From: a virus
Taxonomy: Duplodnaviria; Heunggongvirae; Uroviricota; Caudoviricetes
Length of the DNA stretch: 36,440 nucleotides
Reading direction: 5' to 3' (one strand)
Virus record (IMG/VR): IMGVR_UViG_2778261172_000005
Span: 1-36,440 of that record
A program made the translations under genes and the position numbers. The notes beneath the pieces were generated by a model that worked only from the letters and a program-made list of their open reading frames with translations, was not told where the DNA came from and did not search any database. Shown here piece by piece: positions 7,047 to 15,434 of the stretch. Positions within the stretch are counted from its first letter, which is position 1; the number at the start of each line of letters is the position of its first letter.

Positions 7047-8237
7047 TTAATTGCTGTTAACCGAGGTGACCAGATTTGCCAGGTATTTATCGGTAATACG
7101 CTGGCGCAGGGTCAGGTTTTCAAGAGGAGGCACCGGTGTATAGTCGTAGTCGATATACAGTTTTCCGGCCTTGAGGGTTTCCGCATCGTTGGATTCTTCG
7201 CTGAACCAGCAGGTCGCATCCACGATATAGCCGTTTGTTTTCAGCTCACGGAATTTGGCATTGATGCCGTCAACGATGTCGCGAATCAGCGTTGCGGTGA
7301 TGGGCTTGTCCACCGCCCACATGTGCGCCTCAGCCATCGTGTCGGCCAGCACCTGCGCGGTGCGGGTGTAGTTTTCAAAGAGGAACAGCGGGTCATCAGA
7401 GCAGGTACGGTTACCCCAGAATCGGAAACCGTCGCGGCGAATAATCGTAGTGACGCCTGACTCGTTCAACAGGTCAGCATCGGTGCCGGACTCCTGCAAA
7501 TCCCAGAATACAGAAGCACTGATGCCGGTAACACCGTTTACCCCGACATTGGACAGCGTTTTATGCCAGCCCTGCTCCTGGTCGATTTTAGCGCGCAGAC
7601 CCAGCGCACGGGCGGTGGCATACGCGGTGGCGGTGGAGCTGCTGACCGTATCCCATGCGAGGAAATCCGGCCAGATGACCATCAGCTCACGCTGGCTGAA
7701 ATTCTGGCGGTAGGCTTTCACCTCGGAAATGGTTTTACAGCCCCATGCGCTGATATACCCGAAAGCGCGCAGCTTCTGACAGACTGATGCCAGTGCAACA
7801 GCCACCTCTTTGGTGTCCAGTCCCGGCACGCCGAGAATACGCGGTTTAACACCGGTTACTGACTCCGCCGCCAGCAGGGCTTTCAGTCCGGTGTACTGAC
7901 CGTTTTCGTCGGTGGTGCCGATGATATTGGAAACGGTCTGCGCGAGTTTCGTTTCTTCGTCTTCGCCGGTGCCGTCTTCCACACGCACGACAACGGTGAC
8001 CGGTTTTGACTGGTCGGCGATGGCCTGTAACGATGCCGCCAGCGTGCCTTTTTTACCGGCCTTTGCAATTGCGCTCTGGGCATTGGTAATCAGCACAGGT
8101 TTATTGAGGGGGAAGGTTTCCGCATCCGCATCGCTGGCCGTGCAGACCATGCCGACAATGGCAGTGGATACGGTGGAAATGACGCGGGTGCCGTCGTTAA
8201 TCTCCAGCACCTGCACGCCATGATGATAGTCACTCAT
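7047..8237 (-). CDS. FI: Contractile tail sheath protein gpFI (396 aa)
   Basis: P2-collinear, 396 aa, with SD GGAG 6 nt upstream of the ATG. Confidence 0.9.
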   Translation of the reverse strand: MSDYHHGVQVLEINDGTRVISTVSTAIVGMVCTASDADAETFPLNKPVLITNAQSAIAKAGKKGTLAASLQAIADQSKPVTVVVRVEDGTGEDEETKLAQTVSNIIGTTDENGQYTGLKALLAAESVTGVKPRILGVPGLDTKEVAVALASVCQKLRAFGYISAWGCKTISEVKAYRQNFSQRELMVIWPDFLAWDTVSSSTATAYATARALGLRAKIDQEQGWHKTLSNVGVNGVTGISASVFWDLQESGTDADLLNESGVTTIIRRDGFRFWGNRTCSDDPLFLFENYTRTAQVLADTMAEAHMWAVDKPITATLIRDIVDGINAKFRELKTNGYIVDATCWFSEESNDAETLKAGKLYIDYDYTPVPPLENLTLRQRITDKYLANLVTSVNSN

Positions 8238-8268
8238 CCGTTTAACTCCGTGGTTAATGGGTGCAACT

Positions 8269-8330
8269 ATTTTCTGTTGTGCAGAGCATGAGACGCTATT
8301 TGACCTGGCTGGTCAGTGGATGAAACAACA
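8269..8330 (-). promoter_or_regulatory. Candidate Ogr-dependent late promoter P_F: TGTTGT-N12-CCA (8330-8310) plus -10-like GAAAAT (8274-8269)
   Basis: The element and its spacing recur upstream of O: TGTTGT-N12-CCA with GAAACT 55 nt downstream, versus 56 nt here. It resembles the known P2/P4 late-promoter dyad TGT-N12-ACA centred near -55. Confidence 0.45.
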
Positions 8331-8333
8331 GAT

Positions 8334-8360
8334 AAAGAAAAGGCGGGCAATTCGCCCGCC
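8334..8360 (-). terminator. Rho-independent terminator closing the G-FI cargo island before P_F
   Basis: Stem GGCGGGC / GCCCGCC (8342-8348 and 8354-8360). On the minus strand it is followed by TTTTCTTTATC. Confidence 0.6.
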
Positions 8361-8420
8361 TGTCCTGATTTGTACTCACTCATTTTCCGACTGACAATTT
8401 ACATAACCCAAACGCTATCA

Positions 8421-8459
8421 ATTCTGACAGTCTGCTTTGAGCGAAAAGTGGAAGTTCGC
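8421..8459 (+). repeat. Cargo-island repeat, copy C (inverted relative to copies A and B)
   Basis: ATTCTGACAGTCTGCTTTGAGCGAAAAGTGGAAGTTCGC aligns with the reverse complements of 11051-11092 and 9894-9934. In the core there are 22 of 26 matches to copy B. It shares GAAGTT(C)GC with copy A. Confidence 0.7.
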
Positions 8460-8581
8460 AATTATCCTCACCACTGATAAGTAGCCTTTACTTACAATGT
8501 AATGTGTTAGCTAATGTAATAGGAGCTGAGCAGTGAATTATGAATGGATGCTTTAGTTCATATTTGGGAACAAATTACTGT

Positions 8582-8604
8582 AAAAAAAACCGGCTTACAC
8601 CGGT
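8582..8604 (-). terminator. Rho-independent terminator of the 305-aa gene
   Basis: On the minus strand, ACCGG-TGTAAG-CCGGT followed by TTTTTTTT. It lies 58 nt past the stop codon. Confidence 0.7.
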
Positions 8605-8661
8605 TTAAACTCGCTCGCGAGAATCACCCCCCAAATTATATGCAAAATTAAAAATACCAAT

Positions 8662-9579
8662 TCACTCCATTTCTCTTTTGGCTAATTCTTCCCATTCGTC
8701 GATTGAGTTATTATAAGGAAATACCTCTTTAACTATGAAAGGAATGTAGCTTTCTTCAGCATTGTGATGTATTTCATTACTGATATTACTTGTGATTCCG
8801 AATTTTACGTCAGGATCGTTTTCAGAGAAATGTATATGAAAAGGTTGTTGACCTAAAGCCTGTCTAATTTTATTTGCTTGTTCTGATGGAAGGACTTTAA
8901 GTAGCTGTTTGAATGTTTTTTTATTAAAGTCTAGAGAAATGGCCATATCAATATCTCCGGGTATCATAGATATGCACGTGTATGACCGTTCGCTCAATCG
9001 ACTAATAAATTTAGTATTTATAGCAGGGGCACTAAAAGAACCATCTTTAACCAAACCCATTTTTCGAATATGAATTCCAAAATCAGGTGCATAACTCAAG
9101 ACATCCGGATTGGCTTTAATATCTGGATTTAATATCCTAAATAATTTTTCCCAGTAATTACCAATGTCTTTCAAAGAAAATCTGAGTATTGGGTGGAGTT
9201 CCCGTATACTATATAGAACAAATTCATTCCCATTGCACAATGCATACATTTCTGCCCTTATTTCTGGATGTATAGCATAACTATAGGCTTGCTCAACGTG
9301 CATGCTTTTGGTTATTTTTTCATTAGGGGCCTTTGCATCAAGAATCCAATATGGTCGGTCGTTAGAAAGAAAAACATAATCCGGTACTATTGAAATCTTT
9401 CTTGGCTGTGAACCTATTGAGACAAATGGATGTGTAAGCGTTTTGCTCCTGATTACACGACTATCTCCCGATGCTTTATAACCAAGAGCTTTAATAATTG
9501 GTAAAATCAACTCTTCTCTGACTGAATCCTCTTTAAATTCATCTGAGCTTAGTAAGTTAAAATCAAAATCATCAAACAT
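8662..9579 (-). CDS. PD-(D/E)xK nuclease-fold protein with an HsdR-N-terminal-like domain and an unassigned C-terminal half (305 aa)
   Basis: N-terminal pattern EELILPIIKALGYK...IVPDYVF...WILDAKAP...VEQAYSYA...ALCNGNEFVLYS fits the type I restriction R-subunit N-terminal (Mrr-like) nuclease fold, with D, D-A-K and Q signatures. The gene is AT-rich, has its own terminator and sits at the Z/fun position. I am confident it is coding and less sure of the family. Confidence 0.7.
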   Translation of the reverse strand: MFDDFDFNLLSSDEFKEDSVREELILPIIKALGYKASGDSRVIRSKTLTHPFVSIGSQPRKISIVPDYVFLSNDRPYWILDAKAPNEKITKSMHVEQAYSYAIHPEIRAEMYALCNGNEFVLYSIRELHPILRFSLKDIGNYWEKLFRILNPDIKANPDVLSYAPDFGIHIRKMGLVKDGSFSAPAINTKFISRLSERSYTCISMIPGDIDMAISLDFNKKTFKQLLKVLPSEQANKIRQALGQQPFHIHFSENDPDVKFGITSNISNEIHHNAEESYIPFIVKEVFPYNNSIDEWEELAKREME

Positions 9580-9593
9580 ATCCCCCCCACATA

Positions 9594-9623
9594 TATTTAT
9601 TTGACAAAAGATGTATAATTCAA
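9594..9623 (-). promoter_or_regulatory. Candidate sigma70 promoter for the 305-aa gene: -35 TTGAAT (9623-9618), 18-nt spacer, -10 TAAATA (9599-9594)
   Basis: Read on the minus strand directly upstream of a G7 Shine-Dalgarno-like run and the ATG at 9579. This is only a hexamer match. Confidence 0.3.
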
Positions 9624-9893
9624 ATTATTCAGAGCCATTGTAAATCACTATAGAATAAAAAGATAATTTCAAGTGGAGGTGTTATCTGATTTTTTGATTT
9701 ATAGCACAAAAAACGACCTCTACAGGCTGTTTATTACGATAGTTAAAGCTGATCACATTTAGGCAGTCAGTCCAAGATGCTCTCTTCAACATGGCCTAGG
9801 TTTTTTTACCGTCGAAGAAGATAATTGTGTCCATAGCATGATGCTTTCAAGTGGTATGATCTCTTTCTCAGTGATTCATGCAGTATGAGCCTA

Positions 9894-9934
9894 GCAACTT
9901 CTGCTTCTGGCACAGGGCGGACTTTCTGACTGAG
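9894..9934 (-). repeat. Cargo-island repeat, copy A (internal, same orientation as B)
   Basis: Plus strand GCAACTTCTGCTTCTGGCACAGGGCGGACTTTCTGACTGAG aligns with 11051-11092. The shared stretch CTGCTT(C/T)TGGCACAG(G/A)GCGGACT is nearly identical. Confidence 0.7.
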
Positions 9935-10085
9935 TTGAAGGTCTGCTGCGACCGAATATCGGACATTAATAACCTCAGAGACATAGCGCCCTTGAAATGC
10001 ACCCCTCCAGAAATGAAAATCTGTTATGATACTAGCATAAACTATTTATTTTTCAGTAAAGTTTAGAAAACAAATTTTTATGAAT

Positions 10086-10112
10086 AGAAAAAAGGAGAAC
10101 AATGCCCTCCTT
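10086..10112 (-). terminator. Candidate terminator of the DUF2971-like gene
   Basis: On the minus strand, AAGGAG-GGCATTGTT-CTCCTT followed by TTTTTCT. It lies about 20 nt past the stop. The stem is short (6 bp). Confidence 0.45.
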
Positions 10113-10130
10113 CTTTATTTTTAAATTCTA

Positions 10131-10859
10131 CTACAATTTAATTTTTAGTCTTTTAGGAGCATCGTATAGAGTAGATATTTTTATTTCGGCTTTACAACCC
10201 TTATCCTCAATTGCCAATGTGTATGCCTGCCTTAAGTTTTTTTCCATTCTTGGGTCAAATAGCACGGTGTCTAATAGTTCAACTGGATTAATTTCAAACT
10301 GGAAAATATCATTATCGACACTATTATCATCACCAGAATATATTAAACGAACTTCGCTTTCGTGTTCAAACTCCACGCGTTTGTATAAAAGCGATTCAGC
10401 AATGCCTGAGCCATTAGTGTTGAATAAATCAATTGACAAGAGTTTTTCCGAAAGAGTATCCTCCGGAAGATAAGAAACCTTGCCTATAAAACACCTTAAA
10501 TTATGGTAAGTCGGCTCTGCTTTTTGAAGTGCGGCTAATAGTTTTCTTGGTGTGGTTGAAACTCTTACACCATTTTTATCATGGGAATATATCCGCCACA
10601 TTGCATCGGTTTCACTATGAAATGTCCAGCATTGCCCATAAACAGAATCTCTTGCGGCAACTGTTCCTGTTTGACCATCAGAAGTTTCAATTACACAATT
10701 TAATAAAGCGTTCTCAAAAGGGTCATCCCATTTTCTTGGTTTTACTAAAGTTAATTTTTTTTCTTCAAGCAATTGAAGAAAACGGTGTATTGGCATAATT
10801 CTATAAATAGGTATATCCAATGATTCATCTGTTAAATTAATATAGTTATTATAGCTCAT
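10131..10859 (-). CDS. DUF2971-like protein (242 aa)
   Basis: The motif order matches my memory of DUF2971: IYRIMPIHRFLQLLEEKKLTLVKPRKWDDPFE, then GQCWTFHSETDAMWRIYSHDKNGVRV, then LLYKRVEFEHESEVRLIY. The gene is strongly AT-rich and sits at the Z/fun position. Confidence 0.65.
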   Translation of the reverse strand: MSYNNYINLTDESLDIPIYRIMPIHRFLQLLEEKKLTLVKPRKWDDPFENALLNCVIETSDGQTGTVAARDSVYGQCWTFHSETDAMWRIYSHDKNGVRVSTTPRKLLAALQKAEPTYHNLRCFIGKVSYLPEDTLSEKLLSIDLFNTNGSGIAESLLYKRVEFEHESEVRLIYSGDDNSVDNDIFQFEINPVELLDTVLFDPRMEKNLRQAYTLAIEDKGCKAEIKISTLYDAPKRLKIKL

Positions 10860-11050
10860 ACATATTGACCTTTTGGTAGTTAGTGTAATTAAAAAGGCGG
10901 TTGGGATATTTTAGCAAAAACCTAAGAACTGATTCAACCCTGCGGACTTACAGATTTCAGTTCATATATCCAATGTTATAAATTCTCATTTATGAACTAT
11001 TCTCCTAAAATTTTTTGATTTCAATCTTTAGAGAGCGCAAAAGACCTATG

Positions 11051-11107
11051 TTCGAATGACTGCTTTTGGCACAGAGCGGACTGTCAGATTAGGCTTTACT
11101 CTGTGCC
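11051..11107 (-). repeat. Cargo-island repeat, copy B (11051-11092), with an associated 9-bp-arm hairpin GGCACAGAG / CTCTGTGCC (11068-11076 and 11099-11107)
   Basis: It lies immediately downstream of the G stop (11143). See copies A and C for the alignments. Confidence 0.7.
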
Positions 11108-11142
11108 ATAGATATGTAAGCTCACACCAGAGTTCATACAAC

Positions 11143-11670
11143 TTATTGCGGCATTTCCGGCCATTCAGGATTTGCAGGATCCACACGACTGACCAGAACG
11201 CTGTAGCGTTCCCAAGCCTCCAGCCGTGTGCGCTCCTCCTCTGTTGCCATGTTCAGTCTGACCGCGCGCTCCAGCGGCAAAATCACGGATTCAGCATCTG
11301 CAAGAAGTCTGGCTTTCCGAATTTCTGCCTGCTGCTGTAATTCCTCTGCCGTATAAATGCGTTTAATCACTTTGCCGTCCTTAAACATCCAGCCCCCTGA
11401 AATATCCGCCCGTCGGTTAGCAGTAATATCCGCCACTTCAACCACACTTAATCCATCCGGTCTGATAGCTGTCACATCCTTTTCCACATAGCGGATGATA
11501 TTATCTTTGTCGTACGCTATTTTTATCGTGTCATCAGCAAAATACTTTTGTTCTTCGTACCAGTTCTTACCATCTTCTGTAAAAAACCAGACAACATCAA
11601 AGCCCTTTGTCAATTGATATTGTTCAACTGTTTTTGGATTACCCGCCGTTATATTTATCAAATGCTGCAT
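11143..11670 (-). CDS. G: Tail fibre assembly chaperone gpG (175 aa)
   Basis: P2-collinear, 175 aa, directly downstream of H. Confidence 0.85.
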
Positions 11671-14533: not shown

Positions 14534-15434
14534 CCGAGCCTCCGGTCACGACGCGGTATTCGGTACAGAAAGACGCCTGCGTACTGTTGAGCACGATGTC
14601 GGCCAGTGGTGCAGCCAGTTCGACACGCTGCACACCTTCCACATGCAAAGCGGCATAAATGGCAGACAGACGGATGTCACGCCCCAGCCGGTGCTGTGCT
14701 GTGATATACGCTTCCAGTTTTTTCACGGCGGCAGCGCGAATGGGTTCGCTTTCGGGGCCAGGGTAAAGGTAAAGCGTGGCGTTTATCTGGTATTCAACAA
14801 TGGCGGCAGACTGCACGGTCACACGGTCAGCCACCGGCCTGACGTCCTCACCATTAAGGGCGTTACGCACCACAGCCAGCAGGTCTTCGGATGCGACACC
14901 GTTATTTTCACGTGACAGCACAGAGATGGTGACGCAGGCCGGAGACGGACTGGTGACAGAGATATCCGCGACACGCCCGTCGGCACTGCGACCATGATAC
15001 TGATAGGCTCCCACCGACCCGGCGACGCTTAAGCCTTCAAACGCCTGCTGAATACGCAGACGATAATCCGTGTCAGATTCCATCACTGCCGGTGTCGGCG
15101 GGATGGTCGAATCATCTGCCGGGGTGATAGTCAGGCGCGTGGTGTTGTAATTGGCACCAATCACATCAAGGTCATTACCGGCTGCACAGGCCAGCATCAC
15201 CGCCCGTGCGGCCTCATTCACACGCTGACGCCAGATAAGCTCGCGATAAGCATTTTCCTCCAGCAGTTTGACGAGAGGCTCGGATTCCAGCGTCAGGGTA
15301 CGGGCGACCGCCTCCTGCTGGTCTTCCGGGTAAAGGGAAATCAGTGTCGCCTTGCGTTCGGCAAGAATGCTTTCAAAGTCCAGCTCCTCGACCACATCCG
15401 GTGCGGGTAGCTGGTTCAGGTCGATAATCGGCAT
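14526..15434 (-). CDS. J: Baseplate wedge protein gpJ (302 aa)
   Basis: P2-collinear, 302 aa, with an 8-nt overlap with I. Confidence 0.9.
   Translation of the reverse strand: MPIIDLNQLPAPDVVEELDFESILAERKATLISLYPEDQQEAVARTLTLESEPLVKLLEENAYRELIWRQRVNEAARAVMLACAAGNDLDVIGANYNTTRLTITPADDSTIPPTPAVMESDTDYRLRIQQAFEGLSVAGSVGAYQYHGRSADGRVADISVTSPSPACVTISVLSRENNGVASEDLLAVVRNALNGEDVRPVADRVTVQSAAIVEYQINATLYLYPGPESEPIRAAAVKKLEAYITAQHRLGRDIRLSAIYAALHVEGVQRVELAAPLADIVLNSTQASFCTEYRVVTGGSDE

Follow-up and report, generated by a model that had tools for sequence, protein, structure and literature searches.

On Acinetobacter plasmids, accessory modules known as dif modules are flanked by inversely oriented XerC/XerD pdif sites (PMC6449649, PMC13141974). 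In P2-like coliphages, the Z/fun region between genes G and FI is enclosed by inverted repeats, and a 2022 review, citing Nilsson et al. 2004, states that these repeats allow site-specific exchange of fun between phages and bacteria. Here we analyse a 36,440-bp stretch of P2-like phage DNA (IMG/VR record IMGVR_UViG_2778261172_000005, taken at its full length and hereafter called the window), in which the island between G and FI carries two cargo genes and four copies, B, A', A and C, of a ~38-bp site belonging to these repeats. Comparison with other P2-like loci, lambdoid prophages and genomic islands indicates that the sites are very probably cassette-exchange joints of some kind. A dedicated site-specific mechanism, in which they would act as recombination sites delimiting exchangeable cassettes, is suggested by the same comparisons, and we regard the case for it as evenly balanced.

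The stretches that follow G and precede FI in the window match ~95 phage records. In GenBank AJ512676-AJ512685 ('P2-ECxx proviral Z-region'), the matches lie under features annotated as 'left inverted repeat' (113 bp) and 'right inverted repeat' (91 bp): window positions 11054-11142 match AJ512680 at 93% where the left inverted repeat is annotated, positions 8238-8456 match AJ512677 at 92% where the right one is annotated, and sites B and C show about 92-96% identity to the annotated left and right repeats. By offset mapping, the left repeat corresponds to window positions ~11058-11170 and the right one to ~8364-8454, with B and C as their best-conserved inner cores. The records come from the work of Nilsson, Karlsson and Haggard-Ljungquist (2004, Mol Biol Evol 21:1). 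In the P2 reference the site is found at 15326-15362, adjoining fun(Z). Repeat homology, the position between G and FI (Pfam) and the foreign AT-rich open reading frames (ORFs) enclosed all place the repeats of the window with the Z/fun inverted repeats of P2-like coliphages, as the same element at the same place. Given the GenBank annotation and the review, both the repeat and the recombination idea have already been published, and the initial annotation of this DNA, which knew of no described element, has to be corrected on this point. The window differs from the Z/fun records in its two-cassette island. Several features described below have no annotation in those records, namely the internal R/L doublet, the division of spacers into L and R types, the crossover window, the hotspot of lambdoid prophages and the empty site.

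The Acinetobacter dif modules are the closest natural analogue that we know of. Both systems consist of gene modules between short inverse sites, in arrays shuffled among replicons, with an enzyme acting in trans that is putative in the present case. They differ in site architecture (11 + 6 + 11 in the dif modules, 7-12-bp arms with a 10-bp spacer here), in the junction between modules (one shared site there, a doublet of two sites here) and in location (plasmids there, prophages and chromosomal islands here). Membership of the dif/pdif group was rejected, as the best ungapped match to the reference sites covered 11-14 of 28 positions, no more than for shuffled sequences. Engineered recombinase-mediated cassette exchange with heterospecific lox or FRT sites offers an analogy of mechanism alone: there too, two unlike spacers flank the cassette, each site pairs with its own kind, polarity is kept and the outer arm is resident, whereas the present system is natural and has no sequence similarity to loxP.

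The initial annotation had placed three ~40-bp copies (A, B and C) in the island, A and B as direct repeats and C inverted. Their coordinates and letters were confirmed, and a repeat finder run on the window returned the same arrangement (A/B, direct repeat of 29 nt with 86% identity; B/C, inverted repeat of 26 nt with 85% complementarity). Allowing <=8 mismatches, a 27-mer from copy B matched at 3 places alone in the 36,440 bp, namely A, B and C, compared with a mean of 0.0 places in 20 shuffles; the three copies are far above chance expectation. B and C bracket the island as inverted repeats, as had been proposed, and form part of a larger terminal inverted repeat whose weaker similarity continues ~60 nt outward, reaching the stop codon of G beyond B and the terminator beyond C. 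A fourth site, A', had been overlooked. It is oriented as C and stands back-to-back with A, the two stems of the doublet being 18 nt apart. Taken alone A' is weak (71% to C with the repeat finder; ~10 bits with nhmmer); its positional counterpart in Escherichia coli SE11 is a good copy (33 bits with nhmmer), and the whole A/A' doublet gives 75-80% matches to doublets of five other loci. With A' as a fourth site, the island resolves into two cassettes, one running from B over cargo gene 1 to A' and the other from A over cargo gene 2 to C. On the G side, homology of the window to other P2-like phages stops within site B (11050-11067), and on the other side it extends from FI to 8444-8456 and ends there. 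The G+C content of the island is 34.7%, against 50.3% for the window.

We aligned 74 distinct copies of the site from 80 P2-like loci collected by their FI protein; each scan took in at most 80-120 loci, and the IMG/VR contigs are partly redundant. The consensus has 7-bp inverted arms, GTCYGCT and AGCRGAC, with a 10-bp spacer between them and RTT after the 3' arm. The whole site measures ~38 bp, and past the RTT the sequences of different cargos are unrelated. In some copies (L017, L070 and L234) the arms reach 12 bp (TGACAGTCCGCT / AGCGGACTGTCA). Two types of spacer occur, L (TGTGCC; YTGTGCCANN; CTGTGCCANN) and R (TGAGCG; TTGAGCGANN), and in the P2 hotspot the L type was on the G side in 45 of 45 loci and the R type on the FI side, both facing the cargo. 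Across 32 non-redundant cargos, the frequency of the consensus base was 0.9-1.0 in the outer flank, the 5' arm and spacer positions 1-8, 0.4-0.5 at the final two spacer positions and 0.7-0.9 in the 3' arm, and it was at background past RTT. Such an asymmetric spacer between inverted arms corresponds to the core layout of tyrosine recombinase sites (lox-, FRT- or dif-like), here with a spacer of 10 bp.

All four sites of the window can be read in these terms. Site B consists of 11 outer nucleotides (CTAATCTGACA), the arm GTCCGCT, the spacer CTGTGCCAAA, the arm AGCAGTC (5/7 complementary) and ATT, and site A of the arm GTCCGCC, the spacer CTGTGCCAGA, the arm AGCAGAA and GTT. On the R side, A' has the arm GTCTGCT (9941-9947), the spacer GCGACCGAAT, the arm ATCGGAC and ATT, and C has the outer sequence CAATTCTGACA, the arm GTCTGCT (8430-8436), the spacer TTGAGCGAAA, the arm AGTGGAA and GTT. 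The two ends of one island showed no co-variation beyond the general motif (permutation across 35 non-redundant islands, p = 0.10 to 0.99 by segment), and an impression of concerted evolution of matched ends, gained from L004, L018 and L036, was unsupported by this test.

The motif was found at the boundaries of 45 of the 80 P2-like loci and was absent from the other 35; the motif-free loci that were read in detail had an empty junction or a DNA invertase gene instead. In the empty junctions (six loci, among them L005 and L013), 3-5 nt separate the stop codon of G from the equivalent of the window's terminator at 8341-8361, and no site is present; this identifies the terminator as the backbone terminator of the tail-fibre operon. 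In filled junctions, the repeat pair and the cargo sit exactly between the G stop codon and this terminator. Since the empty junctions lack the repeats, these belong to the inserted material and not to an ancestral post-G sequence. The outer part of the left repeat is likewise missing from the P2-like phages with an empty G-FI junction, and the FI leader is kept in empty and filled sites. We found no target-site duplication when comparing the empty and filled P2 junctions.

Sites also occur inside some islands. Among 33 non-redundant P2 islands, 27 had no internal site, including seven with several ORFs, and the remaining 6 had internal sites that were always between ORFs and often in doublets. 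R/L doublets are present in other two-cassette P2 islands (L001 = P2-EC46, L015, L033 and L044/L048) and, outside P2 islands, at 20 or more enterobacterial loci, where the distance between the two sites is conserved at 14-18 nt. Copy number thus counts modules and not genes: where the initial annotation proposed that it might follow the number of cargo genes, it follows exchangeable modules, at two sites per module. The earlier remark that A and B each lie upstream of one cargo gene turned out to be incidental, as ORF direction relative to the sites is mixed (28 vs 21). In contrast, the proposal that the copies mark the boundaries of cargo units agrees with the homology comparisons across loci, and the motif recurs as anticipated at the boundaries of P2-like hotspots and, elsewhere in E. 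coli, at cassette borders instead of being scattered. By these comparisons, a cassette has one L and one R site, both facing inward, and neighbouring cassettes meet at an R/L back-to-back doublet such as A'/A.

Viral contigs were also scanned for the sites, and most of the new matches lay away from P2 genes. Thirty-five matches were lambdoid prophages, and in these a second hotspot separates a Ren-like exclusion gene from HNH/RusA/Q genes (loci among L208-L322, e.g. L261:4034-9340, L242, L224, L276 and L243). In this ren-nin hotspot the L site is located 72-101 nt past ren and the R site at the distal end. Six cargo types are common to the P2 and lambdoid hotspots, five of them as complete cassettes of 1033-2244 bp that are 99.2-99.7% identical and have unrelated flanks. 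Homology ends at the outer stem foot +/-1 nt in 9 of 10 ends, with L matching L and R matching R in every case. One of the shared blocks is a two-cassette array that moved as a unit.

These shared cargos allowed the joints to be mapped. Whatever the cargo, 43 of 45 P2 sites have C at L spacer position 1, where all 34 lambdoid sites have T, and 43 of 44 P2 sites have T at R arm position 4, where all 34 lambdoid sites have C. Variants linked to the cargo begin at R spacer position 6 (the GAGTG variant, L043/L224) and at L spacer positions 9-10. The hotspot-specific and cargo-linked bases together confine the joint to ~5-9 nt of the spacer: for the six cargo types, the limits are arm position 4 and spacer position 6 at the R site, and spacer positions 1 and 9 at the L site, although recombination within the identical 15 nt predicts the same. 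The inner half of site B, AGTCATTCGAAC, is seen again at the L site of a lambdoid locus (L287). As far as these comparisons go, the outer half-site appears to stay with the recipient and the inner half to travel with the cargo, which would place the crossover in the spacer.

Sites of this kind are not confined to phages. The pattern GTCYGCTYTGWGCSANNAGCRGAC, scanned in one genome per bacterial species, gave at least 120 loci against ~2 expected by chance (our own estimate), and none of these listed loci was near P2 genes. A site of the SE11 type is present in 1,767 of 5,426 E. coli genomes, at a median of one and at most five places per genome, and is almost restricted to the chromosome, with 8 of 2299 places on plasmids; the contexts that we read were tRNA-type genomic islands with the motif at cassette borders. 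The one DNA homologue of cargo 1 found in the E. coli collection (81%) belongs to a non-P2 island of SE11, and the homology extends from 9930 to 10935. Its start coincides with the outer edge of A', and the SE11 sequence there is a clean R site. In strain Nissle 1917 (L204:7007-12766, NZ_CP171242.1), R and L sites enclose a 5.7-kb iron-uptake operon with a TonB-dependent receptor and an iron ABC transporter, so that site-bounded cassettes extend past small defence genes. Strain 675SK2 has two cassettes arranged as R..L.R..L, one of them with a DUF2971 gene homologous to cargo 1, and the genes next to sites in other Enterobacterales are ordinary accessory ones (glyoxalase, LysE, FMN reductase, LysR, ArsR, ASCH, GNAT and similar). 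On this comparative evidence, cassettes move between hotspots with resident L and R sites, namely the P2 G-FI region, the lambdoid ren-nin region and the variable regions of tRNA-type islands.

In metagenome-derived genomes of Alpha- and Betaproteobacteria (Pseudolabrys, Xanthobacteraceae and Nitrosomonadaceae), a 24-nt core of the site, ATGTCCGCTTTGTGCCAATAGCGGACAT, is a high-copy repeat (L086-L203, e.g. L097, L113, L138 and L152), with up to 13 copies in 8 kb, mostly on one strand; many of these copies stand in tandem with sister hairpins that have TTTGGGTCAAA and TTTACCCCCGAA as loops.

Of the two options left by the initial annotation, a functional site for cassette exchange fits the comparative data best. 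We propose that a putative recombinase acting in trans would bind the inverted arms and exchange strands in the spacer. A cassette would be replaced through two site-specific crossovers, one between L sites and one between R sites; the two spacer types would make the sites heterospecific, and the double crossover would then swap the cassette without inversion or deletion. In its widest form, which we put forward tentatively and with considerable doubt, the L and R sites would be substrates of one trans-acting recombinase in a natural cassette-exchange network of P2-like phages, lambdoid phages and Enterobacterales islands, and relatives of the putative enzyme may reach the other Proteobacteria in which the 24-nt core is abundant.

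Several results weigh against a dedicated recombinase. The spacers of tyrosine recombinase sites are usually 6-8 bp long, and the 10-bp spacer exceeds this. Among L021, L025, L027 and L039, R sites next to the same cargo vary over spacer positions 11-16, a variation not accounted for by crossover at a single fixed point. The pattern of a resident outer half and an inner half moving with the cargo would be given equally by recombination in the sole identical 15 nt. No similarity above shuffles was seen between the site and dif, pdif, hix/gix, loxP or the Tn3 38-bp repeat, and neither a recombinase nor an HUH nuclease was enriched among 122 ORFs near sites in other Enterobacterales. The P2 and lambdoid hotspots have no neighbouring gene in common. 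In the window itself the copies have imperfect inner arms, and B, A, C and A' do not fold as canonical hairpins (z -0.5 to +0.7). The four sites of the window thus appear eroded, and are probably records of past exchange and less than fully active. As a side observation, SE11 has a gene with a YagK/YfjJ domain (L083:1911-2489) ~2 kb from site-bounded cassettes. We take this family to be related to inovirus Gp2-type nicking proteins, and the gene is a possible candidate lead for an enzyme acting on the sites.

The main rival explanation is portable short homology, in which shared ends of ~27-38 bp are swapped by RecA, lambda Red or RecET, no dedicated enzyme being needed, and the inverted layout only guards against deletion. 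It would readily account for the lack of an enriched recombinase among the 122 neighbouring ORFs, for joints within the stretch that is identical in donor and recipient, and for arms without base-pair covariation, and the variation of same-cargo sites at spacer positions 11-16 would fit variable crossovers or mutation. The lambdoid partners also typically encode Red- or RecET-type functions. However, the identical stretch available at each end between P2 and lambdoid sites is ~15 contiguous nt, and a length of ~15 nt is under the usual minimum for efficient RecA recombination. In addition, L stays with L and R with R at every complete cassette end examined, and the 3' arm and RTT are conserved over more than 32 unrelated cargos and end sharply, suggesting selection on the whole site. 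We consider short homology a possible but rather unlikely explanation.

The three other explanations are each contradicted by our tests. That the sites are terminal inverted repeats of non-autonomous transposable cassettes, of the mobile insertion cassette (MIC) or miniature inverted-repeat transposable element (MITE) type, with the transposase encoded elsewhere, is very improbable. Each cassette does have inverted ends, the back-to-back doublets look like abutted ends, and homology between contexts stops at the stem foot. In contrast, the outer 4-8 nt are specific to the hotspot and not to the cassette, the L site on the G side in 45 of 45 P2 loci gives no sign of insertion in both orientations, and the empty and filled junctions reveal no target-site duplication. 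A 2026 survey also reports almost no transposable elements in these hotspots (PMC13586616). The MIC/MITE class was rejected on account of the hotspot-specific outer bases and the missing duplication.

We give still less credence to the possibility that the sites are structural or regulatory elements of the repetitive extragenic palindromic (REP) kind, acting as mRNA stabilisers, terminators or insulators, for which the border position would be secondary. The high-copy intergenic 24-nt core in Alpha- and Betaproteobacteria points in this direction, as do the similarity of the doublets to REP doublets and the good folding of the better copies (z = -2.6 for L036 and SE11, z = -6.8 for L070). REP elements, bacterial interspersed mosaic elements (BIMEs) and hairpins formed by REP doublets (REPINs) also resemble our sites as intergenic imperfect palindromes with inverted doublets, a short spacer and high-copy relatives in other Proteobacteria; they differ from them in that our sites have a low copy number in E. 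coli and are tied to the borders of mobile cassettes. The copies of the window are unfolded, the direction of the cargo genes relative to L and R is mixed, as noted above, and the variable arm pair shows no Watson-Crick covariation (C:G 64, T:G 43, C:A 25, T:A 5). Compensatory maintenance of a hairpin was likewise rejected: there was no positive covariation, and all 7 of 7 pairs were Watson-Crick in 18 of 74 P2-hotspot copies. No intrinsic terminator was predicted at any copy, the scan finding only those at 8341-8361 and 8587-8606, and no Rfam family was found at the copies. The hotspot-specific outer halves are also left unexplained by such a role. A full-length but very weak match to Rfam STnc150, a Salmonella small RNA, at 8331-8587 on the minus strand was judged to be due to chance (16.8 bits against a cut-off of 60, E = 1.8).

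Least credible, and largely refuted, is the other option of the initial annotation, that the copies are inert scars of post-G sequence duplicated as cargo units built up in tandem, each bringing its own copy. The degenerate copies of the window and the partial copy with a 98-nt putative remnant beside B would fit it. Against it, identical types of L and R site are found away from any G gene, in lambdoid prophages, in genomic islands and in other genera; cargos that are unrelated share a conserved inner arm; and the sequence is wholly missing from empty-site phages, so that it is not ancestral post-G DNA.

Other described systems were compared with the sites and set aside. Integron attC sites are also short imperfect palindromes at the ends of promoterless accessory cassettes, and the cargo in other Enterobacterales is similar to that of integrons. 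They differ in having one site per cassette in a single orientation, against two inward-facing sites here, and in length (~57-141 bp, against 27-38 bp), and the sites described here have no R/L box pattern. We rejected this class because of the inward pairs of 27-38 bp and because no integron integrase was present among the neighbouring ORFs. The hix, gix and cix sites of DNA invertases were rejected as well, given that similarity to the references did not exceed that of shuffles and that P2-like loci with an invertase lack the motif. A resemblance to the Tn3 repeat, noticed by eye, was dropped as it was not above shuffles. Regarding the invertases themselves, in many P2-like prophages the place of a Z/fun island is taken by a gene for a DNA invertase of the Hin/Gin type, which adjoins the FI leader on its upstream side, ~260 nt from FI, and implies an invertible tail-fibre segment; none of the 16 such loci, which include L007, L008 and L065, has an L or R site.

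The features of the island and its borders are listed in Table 1.

Table 1. Features of the G-FI island and its borders, in window coordinates
Feature	Position	Strand	Basis
Gene G (tail fibre assembly protein); backbone border on the left of the hotspot	11143..11670	-	ORF; Pfam Caudo_TAP, E 1.5e-33
Left inverted repeat, outer part; begins immediately past the G stop codon	11093..11142	-	Approximate offset mapping to AJ512680 and related records; conserved over 32 cargo types
Site B, L type; left boundary of cassette 1	11055..11092	-	Repeat finder, 27-mer search, profile search
98-nt putative remnant, then partial copy B' (10942-10956, AATCTGTAAGTCCGC, 5' arm alone)	10942..11054	-	Repeat finder
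Cargo gene 1, DUF2971 protein; PADLOC candidate defence family PDC-S31	10131..10859	-	PDC-S31, E 1.1e-94
Site A', R type, degenerate; right boundary of cassette 1	9930..9967	+	Repeat finder; nhmmer; SE11 counterpart; doublet matches
Site A, L type; left boundary of cassette 2	9896..9933	-	Repeat finder, 27-mer search, profile search
Cargo gene 2, 305-aa protein, weakly similar to the N-terminal nuclease domain of HsdR	8662..9579	-	All scores under curated cut-offs
Intrinsic terminator of cargo gene 2	8587..8606	-	Terminator scan
Site C, R type; right boundary of cassette 2 and of the island	8419..8456	+	Repeat finder, 27-mer search, profile search
Right inverted repeat, outer part	8362..8418	+	Approximate offset mapping to AJ512677 and AJ512680; missing from empty-site phages
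Intrinsic terminator of the backbone tail-fibre operon	8341..8361	-	Terminator scan; empty-site comparison
Gene FI (tail sheath) with its upstream leader; backbone border on the right of the hotspot	7047..8340	-	Pfam Phage_sheath_1, E 9e-34

The partial copy B' abuts cargo-1 DNA directly and is separated from site B by 98 nt; this segment may be the stump of an earlier cassette. The RefSeq name for the product of cargo gene 2 is HsdR N-terminal domain protein. On the FI side, the leader presumably holds the late promoter, as expected from P2 biology. The ~220 bp around copy C had been described as an orphan segment between two minus-strand terminators. Both terminators were found, whereas the orphan status did not hold, as the segment is made up of three ordinary parts: the right repeat's outer portion, site C and, past the terminator of cassette 2, that cassette's 3' trailer.

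A hairpin with 9-bp arms reported at copy B is indeed present, GGCACAGAG at 11068-11076 pairing with CTCTGTGCC at 11099-11107. The outer flank of the L site contains GGCACAGAG, the complement of the L spacer (window 11068-11107), and the outer flank of the R site contains CGCT..CAAA, the complement of the R spacer (window 8414-8448), with three L/R differences compensated. As a functional second stem the hairpin was dropped, because remnants of inverted copies in the outer repeat explain it equally well.

The island itself is rare. The window is a prophage of E. coli JNEC-KY180, where positions 8238-11200 correspond to NZ_AP045177.1, 1840174-1843136; this makes 1 of 5,426 complete E. coli genomes with the two-cargo island, against 1,048 with its flanks; none of 1308 island or flank places was on a plasmid. 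For cargo gene 2, we found no other DNA homologue in the 5,426 E. coli genomes and none in the collected loci.

Literature searches with site sequence strings and translated peptides returned nothing relevant. In the accessible literature we found no mention of two types of site, of internal doublets marking module borders, of the empty site, of a hotspot in lambdoid prophages, of cassettes nearly identical across phage families or of the mapped joint, some of which the 2004 paper may contain. A 2026 survey of thousands of P2 and P4 elements in Nucleic Acids Research lists the mechanism of their exchange with other mobile elements as unknown; it weighs transposons, homologous recombination and illegitimate recombination, prefers none and leaves the repeats unmentioned (PMC13586616). 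The repeats of 2004 appear to have escaped notice.

Prophage hotspots are major reservoirs of anti-phage defence genes. To the published repeats we add a ~38-bp site whose spacer comes in two types, a crossover window narrowed to a few nucleotides, a further hotspot in lambdoid prophages that uses these sites, and near-identical cassettes across phage families, and these additions turn a general idea into a testable one. If a network served by a trans-acting recombinase proves to be true, it would supply the missing mechanism by which defence and accessory genes jump between unrelated mobile elements, and if a dedicated recombinase exists, it would represent a natural cassette-exchange tool.

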